Virus genome (UHGV): UHGV-1345802
Source of the DNA: a virus
Length of the DNA stretch: 14,708 nucleotides
Strand: one strand, 5' to 3'
Made by a program: the position numbers and the translations under genes. Below are positions 5,058-11,054 of the stretch, one piece after another (within the stretch, counting starts at the first letter, position 1; the number at the start of each line of letters is the position of its first letter). The notes under the pieces are model-generated. The model did no database searches. It worked only from the letters and a program-made list of their open reading frames with translations, and was not told the DNA's origin.

Positions 5058-6041
5058 TCACCCCCTGAATCCTGTCGGGATCTGGCTGTAGTCCACGTTG
5101 TCGTAACTGGCTTTGAAGTACGGGTCCTCGCGTCTGGCTGCAGATACCGCAGGAACTTCCCAGGATTCTTCGAAATGACGATCCGGACCAAAGAACGTGA
5201 CAGCCTGTTTCACAAATTGTGTGCCGCTATTGCCCATCGCAGATACCCAGCCCGCGTAGCGTTTCACACCTTCCAGCATGGTTTCGGGGTTTACCCCCTC
5301 GTTCAAACGGGCTTTCCAGGCTTTGAAGGCTGCTGATTTTGAATTGCCACCAGCACGTTTGGGATATTCCTGCCAGGCCTGTTCAAATTCCGGTGAATAT
5401 TCCTGTCGGGCAGAACGCGCTGGCGCAGACGCGTCAGCGGATGCATCAATAGTGTTTTTAGTCTCCGTTGTAATCTCTGTAGTAATCTCTGTATTTGTAT
5501 CAACATTCGGCGTATCCCCTGTTCCGTTATGACGTCGGGGGGTGTTCCGTTTTAACGTAATAGCTGTATCGCTGATTGCATTATTGCTGTTACTTTCTGG
5601 CGAAACAGAAGAAGGTGTGGTGATGGCCGCAATTGCCTGTGGGTTGATCCCGACAAACAAAATATTGCTGCATTTCACCCCATCGAGCATTTCCACCGTG
5701 CGTAAATCCAGAGTAATAAACCCTGCATCGCGCAGACGCTTCAGCGCATCTGCGGTTTCCCTTTTCCCGAAACCAAACTGCTCAGCAAACGCCTGGTAGC
5801 TTCTTTGCAGTTTGTCGCCCTGAAAACGCTTGCGATATCCCAGCAACGCTCCGGTGTGCTCATCCCTGACCTCTGTCGGGCGGTACCAGTAAACGATCTC
5901 TGAAAGCAGAGCGATAGCCGTCGCATCCGGACGCCCACTGGGTAGTCGAATATATTTCCACCAGGTCGCAGGTGTAACATTGCCGGAAATATTAATTTGA
6001 CCAATAGCCATAACTTCCGGTGTGGGGGCGTAACGGCTCAT
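5058..6041 (-). CDS. Phage replication initiator-like protein (O-position; replisome organiser-like)
   Basis: 327 aa; ATG at 6041 preceded by a strong AGGAGG. It sits between the cro/CII-position genes and the nin-like region, has a Thr/Glu-rich linker encoded by a tandem DNA repeat, and a C-terminal region reminiscent of primosomal or replication proteins. Family assignment is from memory only. Confidence 0.6.
   Translation of the reverse strand: MSRYAPTPEVMAIGQINISGNVTPATWWKYIRLPSGRPDATAIALLSEIVYWYRPTEVRDEHTGALLGYRKRFQGDKLQRSYQAFAEQFGFGKRETADALKRLRDAGFITLDLRTVEMLDGVKCSNILFVGINPQAIAAITTPSSVSPESNSNNAISDTAITLKRNTPRRHNGTGDTPNVDTNTEITTEITTETKNTIDASADASAPARSARQEYSPEFEQAWQEYPKRAGGNSKSAAFKAWKARLNEGVNPETMLEGVKRYAGWVSAMGNSGTQFVKQAVTFFGPDRHFEESWEVPAVSAARREDPYFKASYDNVDYSQIPTGFRG
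5470..5493. repeat. Perfect 12-bp tandem repeat (GTAATCTCTGTA x2) inside the replication gene; candidate iteron/ori
   Basis: Read directly from the sequence; encodes TEITTEIT on the minus strand. Degenerate copies flank it (GTTGTAATCTC, GTATTTGTATC). Confidence 0.5.
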
Positions 6042-6337: not shown

Positions 6338-6558
6338 GCCACACCTCCCAGACGCTTAAACATTTTTCCGGAGCAAAAGGCTATAAGCGGCATACTGACG
6401 CGGTAATTACGGCCCAGCGGTTCACAAATCACCTTCTGACATTCACGGTCAACCAGGCTAACACGTAGAACATGCCCTGCAGGCGTGGTGTACCACTGAC
6501 CCGGACGAGGACAACGGAAAGTCTGATTGGTAAAACGTTTGAAAATATTCCGGATCAT
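6334..6558 (-). CDS. Hypothetical small protein (74 aa)
   Basis: ATG at 6558 with GGGGG 5 nt upstream; ATGA overlap with the Rha-gene stop, and its own stop overlaps the next start. Confidence 0.5.
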   Translation of the reverse strand: MIRNIFKRFTNQTFRCPRPGQWYTTPAGHVLRVSLVDRECQKVICEPLGRNYRVSMPLIAFCSGKMFKRLGGVA

Positions 6559-7706
6559 TTGCGCCCCCTTGCCTCTGAAGGGTTCAGCGACAAATTTATG
6601 AGGCAGGCCAGCGCCGAAGCATCATTAATATAGTCATATAAGCTAACAGCCAGCGGAGATTCGGCTTTTGCCAACATAGGATAAAGCTGCTGCAGCCAGA
6701 CCTGATGAATTGATGAAATGTAGGAACAGAGAACGCTGGCGTTATGTGCAACGTCGCTCGGTACAGCAGGCTTTGAAAGCTGTTTCTCCATCTGGTTAAA
6801 GGCATTGATGTATGCCTCTTTGAACTTGGCAGCACGTTTACCCGTGAAACCCATAGCAAGAAACGCAAAACCGTCGCGGGTGATTTGGTAACAAGGGAGT
6901 TTGCGGCCTGATGCGTCGGTGTATTCACTTAACACAAAAATGTGTTCAGTAAATTCAGCGGAACATTCGAGGTTTCTAATTCTATCTAAAACCCGCTCAT
7001 GCCGTTTAGTAAAGTAATTAGCTACTGCAAGAGATGTGGTGACAACGCGACCATTGATAATCGTGATTTCAGGGTGAGATTGGGTTGGGAGAGTAGTCAT
7101 GGTGACAGCCCCTATGTTGAATTCAATGAACTCACCACCAAGGCTTTCCACGACCATATAGGTGGTGAGACGTACAGGGGTGGAAATACCGGTCAACATA
7201 GAACCCGGCCCAACCGAAGTTGGCCCTGCACGCCCCACCATAATTTGGGCGTAACGATGCTCATGACACGAAAAAACCGCATGAGCGCGGTTGTGCTCTA
7301 TATTGAATTTCGGGTTTCCACGCCCGGCACCCGCTTTATAAGGTGCCGGAACAGTGTAACGTCCCGGAATTGCAGAATCAATATGCTGGTGTTCCTTCAC
7401 ACTCAACAAAATCACGCCTGAATTTCCACAAAGGACTAAAGCACTCATGCGGGTAGTCTTTGCGAAGATAGATAACGCGCTGTGTTTCTGGCTCCCAACG
7501 AATAACATGGACATAAAGCCCTCTTCCGTCACGAAACCAGCGGTTAAGTTCCTGCACAACTCGCCCCCCACAGTCAGGTAAAGTTCTCTGTGGTTACTTA
7601 CAGCCAGGTGATTTGGTAATCTGCATTCATGCCGTAACAACAGGTGTTCAGCGACGCTGACCACCAGCTGTTGCGACAAACGGTTATTTGCCGTTAAACT
7701 GTTCAT
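6555..7706 (-). CDS. Rha-family phage regulatory protein with an unexplained ~200-aa N-terminal extension (possible fusion or two genes)
   Basis: Residues from the internal Met at 7100 (MTTLPTQSHPEITIINGRVVTTSLAVANYFTKRHERVLDRIRNL...) look like the Rha (pRha) domain. The frame is open upstream to an ATG at 7706 that overlaps the preceding stop (ATGA). The N-terminal 202 aa match no family I recognise. Confidence 0.6.
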   Translation of the reverse strand: MNSLTANNRLSQQLVVSVAEHLLLRHECRLPNHLAVSNHRELYLTVGGELCRNLTAGFVTEEGFMSMLFVGSQKHSALSIFAKTTRMSALVLCGNSGVILLSVKEHQHIDSAIPGRYTVPAPYKAGAGRGNPKFNIEHNRAHAVFSCHEHRYAQIMVGRAGPTSVGPGSMLTGISTPVRLTTYMVVESLGGEFIEFNIGAVTMTTLPTQSHPEITIINGRVVTTSLAVANYFTKRHERVLDRIRNLECSAEFTEHIFVLSEYTDASGRKLPCYQITRDGFAFLAMGFTGKRAAKFKEAYINAFNQMEKQLSKPAVPSDVAHNASVLCSYISSIHQVWLQQLYPMLAKAESPLAVSLYDYINDASALACLINLSLNPSEARGRK

Positions 7707-8365
7707 GCGTTAGTTTCTCCACAACCAGAAGCAATCGACGCCACGACGCCCGGAGCTGCACACTCGCGGGCGTTACTCTTTTCCGGCGCACAAAAAACAC
7801 GAAATAACAGTGTTAAATGCTCCTGCCACTTCGCCATTACTTGGTAGCTGTTCTCTTCGATTTGCTCACGCTCAGCCTGGTCAATAACTCCATCAGCAGT
7901 TGCCTTGCGTAAGTACTGGGAATGCTTGCCAATCCATTCTATTGACTCCATCAGCCGCTGATTAATGTCACCATTGTCAATGTCATCAATGTCCACCAGC
8001 GGCACAAACACCCCATTACAACGACGCGCTATCGCATCCGTTACATGCCTGGTACCACTGGCATCCTGTAAAACCATGGCCCACTCAAGTGGAAAAATTT
8101 GATCCCCACCGCTACGCAGTCTGTTATGCAATTGATCTTTCGCTGGGGTGATATCATCAGATTTATACAAACCAAGAATTTCCGCTGCTTCCTCATAGCC
8201 ATGAGGTAAATCAGCAATCGTTCTTCGTATTGCTGCCACCAGCCATGCTGGTTGCTTATCAACTTTCCATTCAGGTTCTTTACCCACGGTTAATTCCTCG
8301 TTTCTGTGGTTACGTTTACGCAGTTGAACCGCTAACTTTTTAATAGCACTCAGGTAATCCATCAT
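7703..8365 (-). CDS. CII-position regulatory protein (CII/YdaT-like, tentative)
   Basis: About 220 aa directly downstream of cro, the slot used by lysogeny-establishment regulators. Start is ambiguous (ATG 8365 or 8362, or ATG 8398); either overlaps the cro 3' end. Family is a tentative recollection. Confidence 0.4.
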   Translation of the reverse strand: MMDYLSAIKKLAVQLRKRNHRNEELTVGKEPEWKVDKQPAWLVAAIRRTIADLPHGYEEAAEILGLYKSDDITPAKDQLHNRLRSGGDQIFPLEWAMVLQDASGTRHVTDAIARRCNGVFVPLVDIDDIDNGDINQRLMESIEWIGKHSQYLRKATADGVIDQAEREQIEENSYQVMAKWQEHLTLLFRVFCAPEKSNARECAAPGVVASIASGCGETNA

Positions 8366-8579
8366 TTGGATTGGGGTAAATATCAGGACGCAGTTCATGA
8401 GGGGTCACGGACCAGTTTCCCAACTCACAAAGTTGTAAAACCCGTTCTGACGGGACTTGATTGTTAATTACCCAATTGGCGACGGATTGAGTGGACTTAA
8501 AACCAAAGCGACGGGCTACTTCAGATAAAGATTTTCCCGCAGCCTTTACTGCTTTCTCTGTGTAGTTTTGAGATGACAT
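8340..8579 (-). CDS. cro: Cro-type HTH repressor
   Basis: 79 aa with an HTH (SLSEVARRFGFKSTQSVANWV), divergent from the cI-like gene. ATG at 8579 has AGGAG about 7 nt upstream. Confidence 0.75.
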   Translation of the reverse strand: MSSQNYTEKAVKAAGKSLSEVARRFGFKSTQSVANWVINNQVPSERVLQLCELGNWSVTPHELRPDIYPNPNDGLPECY

Positions 8580-8587
8580 ACCTTTCT

Positions 8588-8649
8588 CCTCTGAAATTCA
8601 GAGGGATAATGCTACTTAAAATAGCAAATTGCAACTACTTAAAATAGAA
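8588..8649. promoter_or_regulatory. oR/pR-pRM divergent control region
   Basis: Candidate pR on the minus strand: -35 TTGCAA (8629-8634), 17-nt spacer, -10 CATTAT (complement of 8606-8611). Repeated CTACTTAAAATAG at 8612-8624 and 8635-8647. A 17-bp perfect palindrome CCTCTGAAATTCAGAGG (8588-8604) lies between the -10 and the cro Shine-Dalgarno. Confidence 0.55.
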
Positions 8650-9390
8650 ATGACTAGCGCGTGCGATGTGAGTAATCTTCTACCTATGGTAGAAGAACAG
8701 AAGTATCCAGATTTCGCCAAGAGACTAAACGAATTGATGACAATCAAAGGAATCTCTGTCACTCAACTCAAAAGTCTTGTGGGCGTTACATATGAAATGG
8801 CTCGTCGATACACAATCGGCGCAGCGAAGCCACGTGTCTCTGTCATGAGTAAACTTGCGTTGGCTCTTGGAGTATCAGCTTCATATCTAGAATATGGTGT
8901 TGGAGATAGAGAGGAATGTAAGGAAATGGCAAGCATCCCCAATCCAACAAAGCCCGATGTATACAGGATAGAAGTTTTGGATCTTAGCGTTAGCGCAGGA
9001 CCTGGGACCTATATGCTTTCAGACTATGTTGATGTGCTCTACGCCATTGAGTTCACAACTGAACATGCCCGTTCTCTTTTCGGAAACCGTTCTCAGAATG
9101 ATATAAAAGTTATGACGGTAAATGGAGATAGTATGTCCCCAACTCTTGTTTCCGGGGATCGATTGTTTGTCGACATTTCCGTTCGCCACTTCCAGACTGA
9201 TGGAGTTTACTCTTTCGTTTACGGTAAGACTTTCCATGTTAAACGTCTACAAATGCAAGGCAACAAACTAGCTGTTCTTTCGGATAACCCCGCCTATGAG
9301 AAATGGTACATTGATGAGAAGTCGCAAGATCAGCTTTATGTTATGGGTAAGGCACTGATTCATGAGTCGATTAAATATAATCGACTTTAA
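8650..9390 (+). CDS. cI: cI-type prophage repressor (HTH_XRE + S24 LexA-like peptidase)
   Basis: N-terminal HTH (LNELMTIKGISVTQLKSLVGVTYEMARRY) and a C-terminal S24 domain with GDSMSPTL and a downstream Lys (HVKRLQ). The start has no Shine-Dalgarno (ATG 8650 or ATG 8686; track start TTG 8629), consistent with a leaderless cI message. Confidence 0.85.
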   Translation: MTSACDVSNLLPMVEEQKYPDFAKRLNELMTIKGISVTQLKSLVGVTYEMARRYTIGAAKPRVSVMSKLALALGVSASYLEYGVGDREECKEMASIPNPTKPDVYRIEVLDLSVSAGPGTYMLSDYVDVLYAIEFTTEHARSLFGNRSQNDIKVMTVNGDSMSPTLVSGDRLFVDISVRHFQTDGVYSFVYGKTFHVKRLQMQGNKLAVLSDNPAYEKWYIDEKSQDQLYVMGKALIHESIKYNRL

Positions 9391-9624
9391 TTAGGCATCT
9401 AGCAATCGTTAAAGCAAACGAGCACAGATGATAAAAGATAAGGATAGAAAATCTTTATACAAATTTTATTTGGCACATTGGTCCATAAAAATGGATTAAC
9501 ACTGAGCTGTTACCCTAAGTAAGAAAAGATAAAGACCATATGTTATCTTTGGGTGCGTTACTAACACAAAAAAAACCAAAATAAAACATAAATAATAGAC
9601 AATTCTATACAACAGGATACGATA

Positions 9625-10710
9625 ATGATTAATGAACGTACTGAAGCGACAGATGGGGTAGCAGATATGATTTCCACCAATACAAAATATTTAGTATGGA
9701 ACAACAAAGGTGGTGTAGGAAAAACTTTTCTTACATATAATCTTGCCGTTGAGTTTGCTATATCTCATCCGGATCAAGATGTTGTGGTTATTGACTCATG
9801 CCCTCAATCAAACGTTTCAGAAATTATTCTTGGTGGCAATGGTACCGGGGAAGAAAATCTAAATAAATTGCGAGACAGAAATGTTACAATCGCAGGTTAT
9901 ATCAAGGAGCGTTTTAGCAAATCTCCTTTGTCTCGTTTAGGAAATGAATCTTCTTACTTTGTACGAGCCCATGATGTTAATGCAAAAATGCCAGAGAACT
10001 TATATATTCTTCCTGGTGATGTCGATCTTGATATCTGTTCACGCTTAATATCTCACATTGGCTCATCCCCAGTAAAAGAAGCATGGAAGAAAAGCCGATC
10101 TTTGCTGGTAGATCTAATAGCATCTTTTGAAGCCGATAAAAACATTTCTGACAGAGCAAAAACATTTTTTATTGATTGTAATCCAAGTTTTGCCAGCTAC
10201 ACAGAATTGGGAGTAGTCGCGGCAAATAGAATAATTATCCCTTGCACTGCCGATGCTGCATCAATTCGCGGAATAAAAAACCTTGTTAAACTTATTTATG
10301 GAGTGTCTATTGACAAGTCAGAACAAGATGAAATGTTCTTAGATTTCAACAAAGAAGCAAAGCAAAACCTTATCGAACTACCTGAACTACACCTTTTCGT
10401 ACAAAACCGCTCAAGAACTAATGAAAGTGATGCAGCAAAAGCATTCAAATCACATGCAGAAGAGATCAAAAGAATCACGGATGACCTGTTAAATACACAT
10501 CCTCATCTGTTCACAAATGTGGCTACTTTCGAGAGAGTTCAAAATGTCAAAGATGGTAATACTCTTGCAGCAATAATAAACCATGAGGGATGCCCTTTAA
10601 GTAGGCTGCAGCATAAGAGTTACACTATCTATGGTATGGCGACCCAAGCTAATAGAGCACAAATTGAAGCACTAGAATCTGATGTTTCAACAGTAGTCAA
10701 GTGTCTGTAA
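9625..10710 (+). CDS. Orphan ParA/MinD-family P-loop ATPase in the rex-equivalent position (candidate superinfection-exclusion or defence moron)
   Basis: Deviant Walker A NNKGGVGKT, then IDSCPQSN and FFIDCNPSF...IIIPCTADAASIRG matching ParA/Soj motifs; 361 aa with a long C-terminal extension. The gene and flanks are visibly AT-rich, and no ParB-like partner was seen. ATG at 9625 (AGGAT upstream); alternative ATG at 9670. Confidence 0.75.
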   Translation: MINERTEATDGVADMISTNTKYLVWNNKGGVGKTFLTYNLAVEFAISHPDQDVVVIDSCPQSNVSEIILGGNGTGEENLNKLRDRNVTIAGYIKERFSKSPLSRLGNESSYFVRAHDVNAKMPENLYILPGDVDLDICSRLISHIGSSPVKEAWKKSRSLLVDLIASFEADKNISDRAKTFFIDCNPSFASYTELGVVAANRIIIPCTADAASIRGIKNLVKLIYGVSIDKSEQDEMFLDFNKEAKQNLIELPELHLFVQNRSRTNESDAAKAFKSHAEEIKRITDDLLNTHPHLFTNVATFERVQNVKDGNTLAAIINHEGCPLSRLQHKSYTIYGMATQANRAQIEALESDVSTVVKCL

Positions 10711-10746
10711 TACAATAACCATGATTTAGAACGAACATAATTCTCG

Positions 10747-10770
10747 CCCGACCAACAGGTCGGGTTTTAT
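10747..10770 (+). terminator. Intrinsic terminator after the ParA-like gene (tImm-like)
   Basis: Stem CCCGACC (10747-10753) / GGTCGGG (10758-10764), loop AACA, followed by TTTTAT. Confidence 0.7.
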
Positions 10771-10985
10771 ACTCGTAGCCTGCTTAATAACACTGTTCCT
10801 GACCCGTTGTATCCATAGTTCCCACTATTTTCCCCAAAATTATTACTATCTAATTAACCTAATAATTAAACCAAAACAAAAGACACTCGATATTTTCTAT
10901 ACGTAACTACACCACATCCCCCCATCTGTGAAAAACCTTTTAATTCATAACGTTATATAGAAAACTAAAAATTAAATACACACTT

Positions 10986-11027
10986 CTACTTTTTGTTGTT
11001 GATTTTTGCTACTTTTAGTAGCATCAT
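10986..11027 (+). promoter_or_regulatory. Candidate pL/oL: near-duplicate of the pR/oR cassette
   Basis: -35 TTGATT (10999-11004), 17-nt spacer TTTGCTACTTTTAGTAG (differs from the pR spacer at 2 positions), -10 CATCAT (11022-11027). Operator-like CTACTT motifs at 10986-10995 and 11009-11021. Confidence 0.5.
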
Positions 11028-11037
11028 TATCTGAACA

Positions 11038-11054
11038 AACAACAGACTGTTGTT
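11038..11054. repeat. 17-bp perfect palindrome AACAACAGACTGTTGTT at the predicted start of the leftward early transcript
   Basis: Read directly from the sequence. Same position relative to the promoter as the unrelated palindrome at 8588-8604 downstream of pR. Confidence 0.5.

Follow-up and report, generated by a model that had tools for sequence, protein, structure and literature searches.

A ParA-like ATPase gene without a ParB partner in the immunity region of an Escherichia coli lambdoid prophage, a probable orthologue of the anti-phage gene gipd474

Of the systems described so far, the one closest to the gene considered here is GiPD474 of Salmonella Typhimurium 4/74 (Bosma, Noireaux & Bowden, Appl Environ Microbiol 2025; PMC12724215). 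The gene in question occupies positions 9625-10710 (+ strand) of the virus genome UHGV-1345802, a stretch of 14,708 nucleotides that we refer to, at its full length, as the window, and it encodes, from an ATG start, a GiPD474-type stand-alone ParA-like ATPase of 361 amino acids (aa). In S. Typhimurium 4/74, gipd474 (STM474_RS13505, 1086 bp) is a single gene within the Gifsy-1 prophage's immunity region, is transcribed at a high level in growing lysogens, and accounts for the resistance of the strain to phage Felix O1 (FO1) (PMC12724215). Expressed on its own from the low-copy plasmid pWKS30, it lowers the plating of phages T4 and Alf5 on Escherichia coli K-12 by approximately five logs, and its range of protection in E. 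coli or Salmonella comprises T4, Alf5, and FO1, with no effect on T7, SP6, LPST153, Jbel, VpaE1, and S16; the protection probably acts after adsorption (PMC12724215). Homologues adjoin the cII, cro, and repressor genes across the Enterobacteriaceae, including Escherichia, as found in a survey that covered this family and required at least 70% identity and at least 70% coverage (PMC12724215). Another source, PMC12366544, was examined for ParA or MinD defences and contains none.

Two other groups of systems resemble the window gene, one in fold and the other in position. The positioning ATPases Soj/ParA of type Ib (PDB 8ray, 6iub, 1wcv) and McdA (6noo) share the fold, the window protein being 18-19% identical to 8ray and 6noo. 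Compared to these, it is approximately 108 residues longer, via insertions distributed along the sequence, it has the unique motifs WNNKGGVGKTF and CPQSNVSE, and it comes without a ParB or McdB partner, a centromere, or a cargo; while the role of Soj and McdA is in positioning, the role of the window protein would, by analogy with GiPD474, be in anti-phage defence. Lambda RexAB, Gifsy remAIN, and other cargo inserted between cI and PL share the slot, from the repressor to OL/PL, and expression in the lysogen, and their role of excluding other phages is shared with the GiPD474 type. The window gene, however, has no homology to these, stands as one gene where they comprise two or three, and encodes a soluble ParA-fold ATPase.

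The relationship to gipd474 is close. The window protein belongs to the same 90%-identity cluster as proteins of Salmonella Typhimurium, to which it is 93% identical over its full length, and the homology arms of the gipd474 knockout primers translate to DNGRVEATDRPTE and ALESDVSTVVKC, which are the exact termini of those Salmonella sequences. The two genes are of equal length (1086 bp), and with 93% identity over the full length the window ATPase counts as an orthologue by the thresholds of the published survey (at least 70% identity and coverage; PMC12724215). Its placement is also GiPD474-like, in the order cII-like gene (-), cro (-), cI (+), ATPase (+), terminator, OL. We consider it highly probable that gipd474 has its E. 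coli orthologue in the window gene, a lysogenic-conversion cargo gene for an ATPase that guards the lysogen from certain unrelated lytic phages. The initial annotation of this DNA, which had pointed to a ParA-like protein without a partner, doubted a role in partition, and this doubt is borne out by the 93%-identical orthologue being a single-gene anti-phage defence (PMC12724215): "not a partition protein" is correct, yet the protein was already known as GiPD474. As the discovery has been published, there is little novelty in the defence finding itself, and what is new here is a corrected domain picture, the anatomy of a cassette bounded by operators, a wider range of the stand-alone family (418 species), and a second ParA-like family in the same slot.

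Several points weigh against this identification or against the mechanism that we propose below. The authors of the GiPD474 study left the mechanism open (PMC12724215). Between the E. coli allele and GiPD474, 7% of positions differ, mainly in the disordered first 19 residues, and the defence phenotype was shown for the Salmonella protein, so that for the E. coli allele it is a prediction carried over by orthology. The PADLOC v2 models (2023), including those for Rex, Avs, and other STAND/AAA ATPases, do not recognise the ATPase; the sole PADLOC match, to Drt5 (E 0.007, 13.6 bits, residues 227-319), is graded as noise. Outside the enterobacteria, most immediate neighbours of the related genes are housekeeping and not defence genes, and for this reason a defence role of the distant family members is an extrapolation. 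The correspondence of R264 of the ATPase to R189 of Soj, which enters into the proposed DNA binding, is one that we presume from the resemblance of the motifs.

The window protein is a ParA/MinD ATPase (deviant Walker A, SIMIBI class) and not an AAA+ ATPase. The Pfam family AAA_31 matches residues 24-227 (E 3e-16), and CbiA matches as well. The deviant Walker A motif is K28-GGVGK-T34, of the form KGGxGK[ST], with the N-terminal signature lysine present, Walker A' is at D57 (VVVID), and Walker B is at D184 (FFIDCNPS), the latter two being invariant in an alignment with 37 homologues; K28, G30-K33, D57, D184, R262, and R264 are all invariant in these homologues, down to 54% identity. When aligned by hhalign, D57 and D184, at the ends of strands beta2 and beta4, stand opposite LLVDID and IIIDCPPS of Soj. 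All the nucleotide-binding motifs are intact, and the initial annotation was right to place the core motifs within approximately the first 230 residues, given the extent of the AAA_31 match and the end of ParA sequence likeness at approximately residues 221-227. The published description is of an AAA+ ATPase with an "unknown domain" (PMC12724215), whereas here the protein is of the ParA/MinD type with the deviant Walker A and its C-terminal part belongs to the same fold. An AGGA is found 7 nt upstream of the ATG. A literature lookup under the RefSeq accession of the protein, WP_000606712, produced no match.

A ParA fold with a deviant Walker A could also belong to a genuine partition ATPase serving the prophage in an extrachromosomal (plasmid-like) state, with ParB/parS encoded elsewhere. 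PHROG 164 ("ParA-like partition protein") matches residues 9-350 of the ATPase (E 2e-46) and GenBank records label homologues in the same way, while one of the 73 places at which the ATPase region occurs in E. coli is on a record of 205 kb counted as a plasmid (NZ_CP126947.1, positions 161568-163117; APEC E18005). However, against the NCBIfam model ParA_partition the ATPase scores 48.9 bits, with a cut-off of 180, missing the equivalog threshold, and its scores against PrgP and RepA are far under the respective cut-offs. The other 72 places are chromosomal, and in RefSeq genomes that contain this same block an integrase and an excisionase are found with it, along with chromosomal flanks (the integrase and flanks in locus L001), i.e., an integrated prophage. 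No ParB is found by Pfam among the 20 larger open reading frames (ORFs) of the window, no ORF of at least 25 aa is present between 10716 and 10986, and no ParB/Srx or ribbon-helix-helix centromere-binding ORF flanks the ATPase gene in the ORF list. Nor is any ParB family present among the most frequent Pfam families of 150 immediate neighbours in related loci, and across 89 such loci neither ORF clustering nor Pfam of tight and immediate neighbours detects a conserved neighbour, ParB or other. The initial annotation, which had named a ParB-like ORF on re-inspection as evidence to the contrary, stands on this point, and it stands likewise on the lack of centromere repeats: no iteron or centromere array is found beside the gene, the significant repeats being repressor operators only, and the sole nearby tandem repeat, an A-rich 11-mer in three copies at 9563-9595 (TRF score 38), is of low complexity and is not a centromere array. 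On each of these counts (no parB, no centromere, an integrated prophage as the replicon, a score under the NCBIfam threshold) the locus falls outside ParABS, and, in addition, phage resistance is conferred from a plasmid by the single gene alone (PMC12724215). We regard a role in partition as extremely improbable.

The approximately 130 C-terminal residues had been noted as unassigned and as a possible effector or sensor domain. At the level of sequence the first part of this claim holds, as profile likeness to ordinary ParA proteins ends at approximately residues 221-227 (Pfam; hidden Markov models against PDB; hhalign against Soj, at approximately 221). As alignments of sequence only stop at approximately residue 221, the question of the C-terminal third was decided by structure, and here the region appears as an ordinary last third of ParA with some 50 residues of insertions. 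The AAA_31 model itself has 177 positions only, too few for the last third of any ParA to be assigned by it. An AlphaFold prediction from an alignment of 37 sequences produced a single-domain model of high confidence, with a mean predicted local distance difference test (pLDDT) score of 87.0 and a predicted template modelling (pTM) score of 0.88. In this model the strands are beta1 at 20-25, beta2 at 51-57, beta3 at 126-129, beta4 with Walker B at 178-185, and beta5 at 202-208, followed in the C-terminal third by beta6 (254-262), a helix (268-291), beta7 (305-309), a helix (312-321), and the C-terminal helix (344-360), an order of elements that is the canonical ParA order, with the seven-stranded fold complete in the model. 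Superposition of complete small ParA proteins on the model takes in 92-97% of the length of each (8ray, 244 of 255 residues; 3k9g, 217 of 226; 7dut, 214 of 220; 5u1g, 194 of 211). As the residues up to approximately 221 pair with residues 3-163 of Soj (hhalign), and as the superposition is nearly full, the last approximately 90 residues of the small ParA proteins must be matched after residue 221. By arithmetic, of the 108 residues that the window protein has in excess of the 253-aa Soj, approximately 60 are found before position 221, accounted for by the disordered 19 N-terminal residues and by insertions between beta2 and beta4, and approximately 50 are found after it, accounted for by family-specific elements: a helix at 236-247, the lengthened helix at 268-291, and a hairpin at 332-341.

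The alternative in which a ParA core of approximately 230 aa carries, as a fusion, a separate C-terminal domain of approximately 130 aa (residues ~230-361) with an effector or sensor role fares poorly on this evidence. The pTM score of the full model is consistent with one domain, and alignment of whole small ParA proteins over 92-97% of their length would be impossible unless the residues after 228 supplied beta6, beta7, and the C-terminal helices; the want of an assignment, on which the alternative draws, is what the length of AAA_31 leaves in any ParA. When modelled alone, the C-terminal 134 aa have as their best structural match a ParA, with 87 residues aligned. When used alone as the query against 1.84 billion representative proteins, they match 35 clusters only. 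Among these, the full-length proteins carry the match at the C terminus of a protein of approximately 318-358 aa, and each of the nine shorter matches inspected is a fragment still containing the Walker B (FIDCNPSF) and/or PCTAD motifs. Since the full-length matches share the architecture and the short ones inspected are fragments of it, the region is not a mobile module, and in none of the clusters is it detached from the ATPase core. A discrete effector or sensor domain is, in our estimate, a most unlikely arrangement, and the "C-terminal extension" is, as modelled, for the most part the end that a ParA fold normally has. Conservation within the family varies along this region, the segments 228-253, 268-304, and 344-361 being the least conserved (mean top-residue frequency 0.45-0.50) and the segment 305-343 being among the most conserved (0.77-0.80), and the family-specific insertions may, judging from the model, form a recognition surface. 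The C-terminal helix (EALESDVSTVVKCL) was also considered as a membrane-targeting helix of the MinD type and rejected, as it is acidic and not amphipathic-basic.

With the C-terminal part not being an add-on domain, the mechanistic question moves from a fused effector to how a bare ParA switch stops a phage, an unusual case of a ParA-fold ATPase acting in immunity without a partner and without a recognisable effector domain. By analogy with other ParA proteins, the GiPD474-type ATPase would dimerise as an ATP-dependent sandwich by way of its signature lysine K28. It would probably also bind DNA non-specifically, given that R264-T-N, an invariant motif that follows beta6, resembles the "DARTN" of Soj, to the arginine of which Hester and Lutkenhaus, in 2007, reportedly attributed the DNA binding of that protein. 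A phage-specific factor, in place of ParB, would be the trigger or the target after adsorption, and the surface that recognises it may be composed of the family-specific, partly variable C-terminal surfaces 228-253, 268-304, and 332-343. That a particular phage factor is recognised is suggested by related phages differing sharply in sensitivity (T4 versus S16 and Jbel; Alf5 and FO1 versus VpaE1). The outcome might be a block of phage DNA replication or packaging, or else abortive infection. A bolder proposal, which we put forward tentatively and consider possible rather than likely, is that of a ParA-type switch whose "ParB" is supplied by the invader, in which a phage protein or DNA structure would dock on the C-terminal insertions and would stimulate the ATP-dimer, or lock it, on DNA. 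Such a switch would be a self-contained immune sensor-effector, present as a stand-alone gene in 418 species of bacteria and archaea, and the 3pg5-like family described below would be a second recruit to this slot, serving the same end.

The gene is set in early-region DNA of an E. coli lambdoid prophage that is integrated, with Pfam matches of the window ORFs to DUF968, KilA-N, RusA, LexA-like, Dam, PerC, Ash/Rha antirepressor, CII-like, Cro, S24-type CI, the ATPase, YfdP, YfdQ (DUF2303), and YfdR. The cII-like gene is at 7703-8398 (-), as seen in the ORF list and by Pfam, and the cro-like lytic repressor gene, divergent from cI, is at 8340-8579 (-; Pfam YdaS_toxin/HTH_3, E 3e-11; labelled "transcriptional regulator" in RefSeq). 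Two OR-type operators of 17 bp, TGCTACTTAAAATAGCA at 8610-8626 and AACTACTTAAAATAGAA at 8633-8649, members of the direct-repeat family D1/D4, lie between cro and cI. The cI-like prophage repressor, of 234 aa, with a helix-turn-helix and an S24 self-cleaving peptidase (Pfam Peptidase_S24, E 2e-16, and HTH_3), is encoded at 8686-9390 (+) from an ATG at 8686, where RefSeq also has a coding sequence of 705 bp; a longer ORF for cI, starting with TTG at 8629, overlaps the operators. An AT-rich spacer (9391-9624, +; G+C content 0.30 by composition) leads from cI to the ATPase gene, and it contains no predicted terminator, so that read-through from the repressor transcript into the ATPase gene is possible; a weak promoter-like site is also present upstream of the gene, at 9596-9623. 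The unit of cI and the ATPase gene is closed by an intrinsic terminator at 10746-10771 (+), graded strong, with an 8-bp stem including six G-C pairs and then a T tract. Beyond it are the OL-type operators (10984-11023), located by the inverted repeat and by pattern search, with TGCTACTTTTAGTAGCA at 11007-11023 and a degenerate copy at approximately 10984-11000, and these are the far edge of the immunity cassette.

The 17-bp palindromic operator-like pattern TGCTACTTWWARTAGCA occurs in the window only at 8610-8649 and 11007-11023, with five strand-matches versus 0.2 expected and none of 200 shuffles reaching five, and an inverted repeat (I1) pairs the arms 8606-8652 and 10981-11027 (47 nt, 77% complementary). 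As the operators occur only on both sides of cI, the ATPase gene, and the terminator, the cassette is to be read as OR - cI - ATPase - terminator - OL, with the ATPase gene co-oriented with cI and positioned between cI and the OL operators. The gene is the sole sizeable ORF of a low-G+C island (0.38 within the gene, 0.30 in the spacer upstream of it, and 0.33 downstream, versus 0.50 in the left flank and 0.48 in the right flank), and Rfam and tRNA scans of 9391-11050 returned no match.

This position raises the alternative that the primary role of the protein is in modulating the lysis-lysogeny switch of its own prophage, in the manner of lambda RexA, phage exclusion being a side effect. The gene is found directly downstream of cI-type repressors, and co-oriented with them, in Escherichia, Salmonella, Klebsiella, and Pseudomonas phages, even at 38% identity, the types of cI and of the ATPase co-vary in E. 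coli, and RexA presents a precedent of a non-specific DNA binder in the same slot (bioRxiv 10.1101/2021.04.19.439022; PMC11077077). However, most members outside the enterobacteria are single genes between housekeeping genes, beside insertion sequences (IS), or in restriction-modification (R-M) operons, with no repressor nearby, protection is conferred when the gene is expressed alone in a non-lysogen (PMC12724215), and there is no kinship with RexA in sequence or fold. We judge a primary role in the switch to be unlikely, and prefer the reading of the gene as defence cargo orthologous to gipd474.

The slot following cI is variable. The cro-cI pair is present in 206 E. coli genomes, of which 71 have it at 99% identity or more, and the same number (71) carry the DNA of the window ATPase, while 133 genomes with cro-cI DNA approximately 93% identical, a sister immunity type, are without it. 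In the two of these 133 genomes in which the content of the slot was inspected, IHE3034 (L091, 5220-6296) and EC93 (L092, 5220-6296), it is occupied by a different ParA-like protein of 358 aa, WP_000167381.1, with 23% identity to the window protein and a relationship (E 1e-21) to PDB 3pg5, an uncharacterised protein of 361 aa from Corynebacterium diphtheriae (DIP2308). These two proteins, with approximately 20-23% identity to the window protein, represent a separate family, and WP_000167381.1 is a candidate for a second stand-alone ParA-like defence protein. An assignment of the IHE3034 protein as PDC-M28B was rejected, the weak PADLOC match covering the P-loop only. A third immunity type (cI 84% identical), in TUM9812, carries two small hypothetical ORFs of 133 and 90 aa (L093, 5065-5739), and the presence of different ORFs there marks the position between cI and OL as a cargo hotspot. 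PADLOC recognised no known defence model in the neighbours of the ATPase gene or in the alternative occupants of the slot, the two TUM9812 ORFs having no match. The 71 genomes with the ATPase gene include Shiga-toxin strains of O157:H7 and O145:H28, and, by orthology with GiPD474, resistance to T4-like and Felix-O1-like phages would be expected in such E. coli, which is of relevance to phage therapy and biocontrol.

The family extends well beyond the Enterobacteriaceae, to which the survey of GiPD474 homologues was limited (PMC12724215), and into non-prophage contexts. A word-indexed search detected 1042 homologues, nearly all of the best 120 being full length (339-368 aa), and when one genome per species was scanned, relatives appeared in 418 species, comprising bacteria (Proteobacteria, Planctomycetes, Verrucomicrobia, Spirochaetes, Firmicutes, Acidobacteria, Chloroflexi, and Cyanobacteria) and two archaeal metagenome-assembled genomes. 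All but a few of the best 80 species matches span from approximately residue 21 to residues 357-361, down to 35% identity. Throughout the family the gene stands alone. Tight co-oriented neighbours are present downstream in 15 of 84 cases and upstream in 11 of 85, and the tight same-strand neighbours scanned with Pfam are mostly housekeeping (FabF, a tRNA synthetase, serine hydroxymethyltransferase, alcohol dehydrogenase). The immediate neighbours span 170 Pfam families, the commonest being transposases of IS1595 (7) and IS1 (3), which by neighbour clustering adjoin the homologue in 11 loci, and others being GmrSD (two loci), HEPN RiboL-PSP (two in the sample, three loci overall), and a type I R-M subunit. 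The homologue is a lone insertion between core genes in Aggregatibacter, Moraxella, and Electrothrix, and in two Azospirillum loci (L007, L019) it is found inside or next to RhuM-containing type I R-M operons. The synteny cII-cro | cI-ATPase is kept in Klebsiella phage ST11-VIM1phi8.2 (83.5% identity; L095, 3498-4574) and in Pseudomonas phage phi297 (38% identity; L094, 3510-4562), and the "partition protein" labels given to these two genes in GenBank are probably mis-annotations.

Two local associations were observed among the related loci. One is an alphaproteobacterial mini-module, in which a gene for a DUF6471 protein (76 aa) is accompanied by the ParA-like gene and by one for a protein of approximately 142 aa with a weak HARE-HTH match, in five loci (L007, 4593-9612; L019; L046; L057; L065), usually with an IS1595 transposase alongside. 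Another is a gene for a 200-aa HEPN (RiboL-PSP) protein, lying against, or overlapping, the ParA-like gene's stop codon (L069, 7026-7628; L073, 3518-4123; L090, 1685-2287); no other plausible effector-like partner was seen, and this one is limited to three betaproteobacterial loci of one subclade.

Some minor features of the prophage early region may be mentioned. Rfam recognises the C4 antisense RNA (82 bits) and the Hfq-binding small RNA isrK (62 bits) at 7158-7245 (-) and 7270-7346 (-), respectively, both inside the 5' part of the Ash/Rha-type ORF at 6555-7706 (-), the three together being an antisense-controlled antirepressor module of the P1/P7 style within a lambdoid prophage. Between PerC and DUF4222, IHE3034 and EC93 have a gene with a helix-turn-helix annotation. 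The ORF at 5058-6041 (-), of 327 aa and with no Pfam match, contains at 5462-5493 a 12-bp unit, TCTCTGTAGTAA, in 2.7 copies, and, by analogy with the repeats within lambda gene O, these may be origin iterons.

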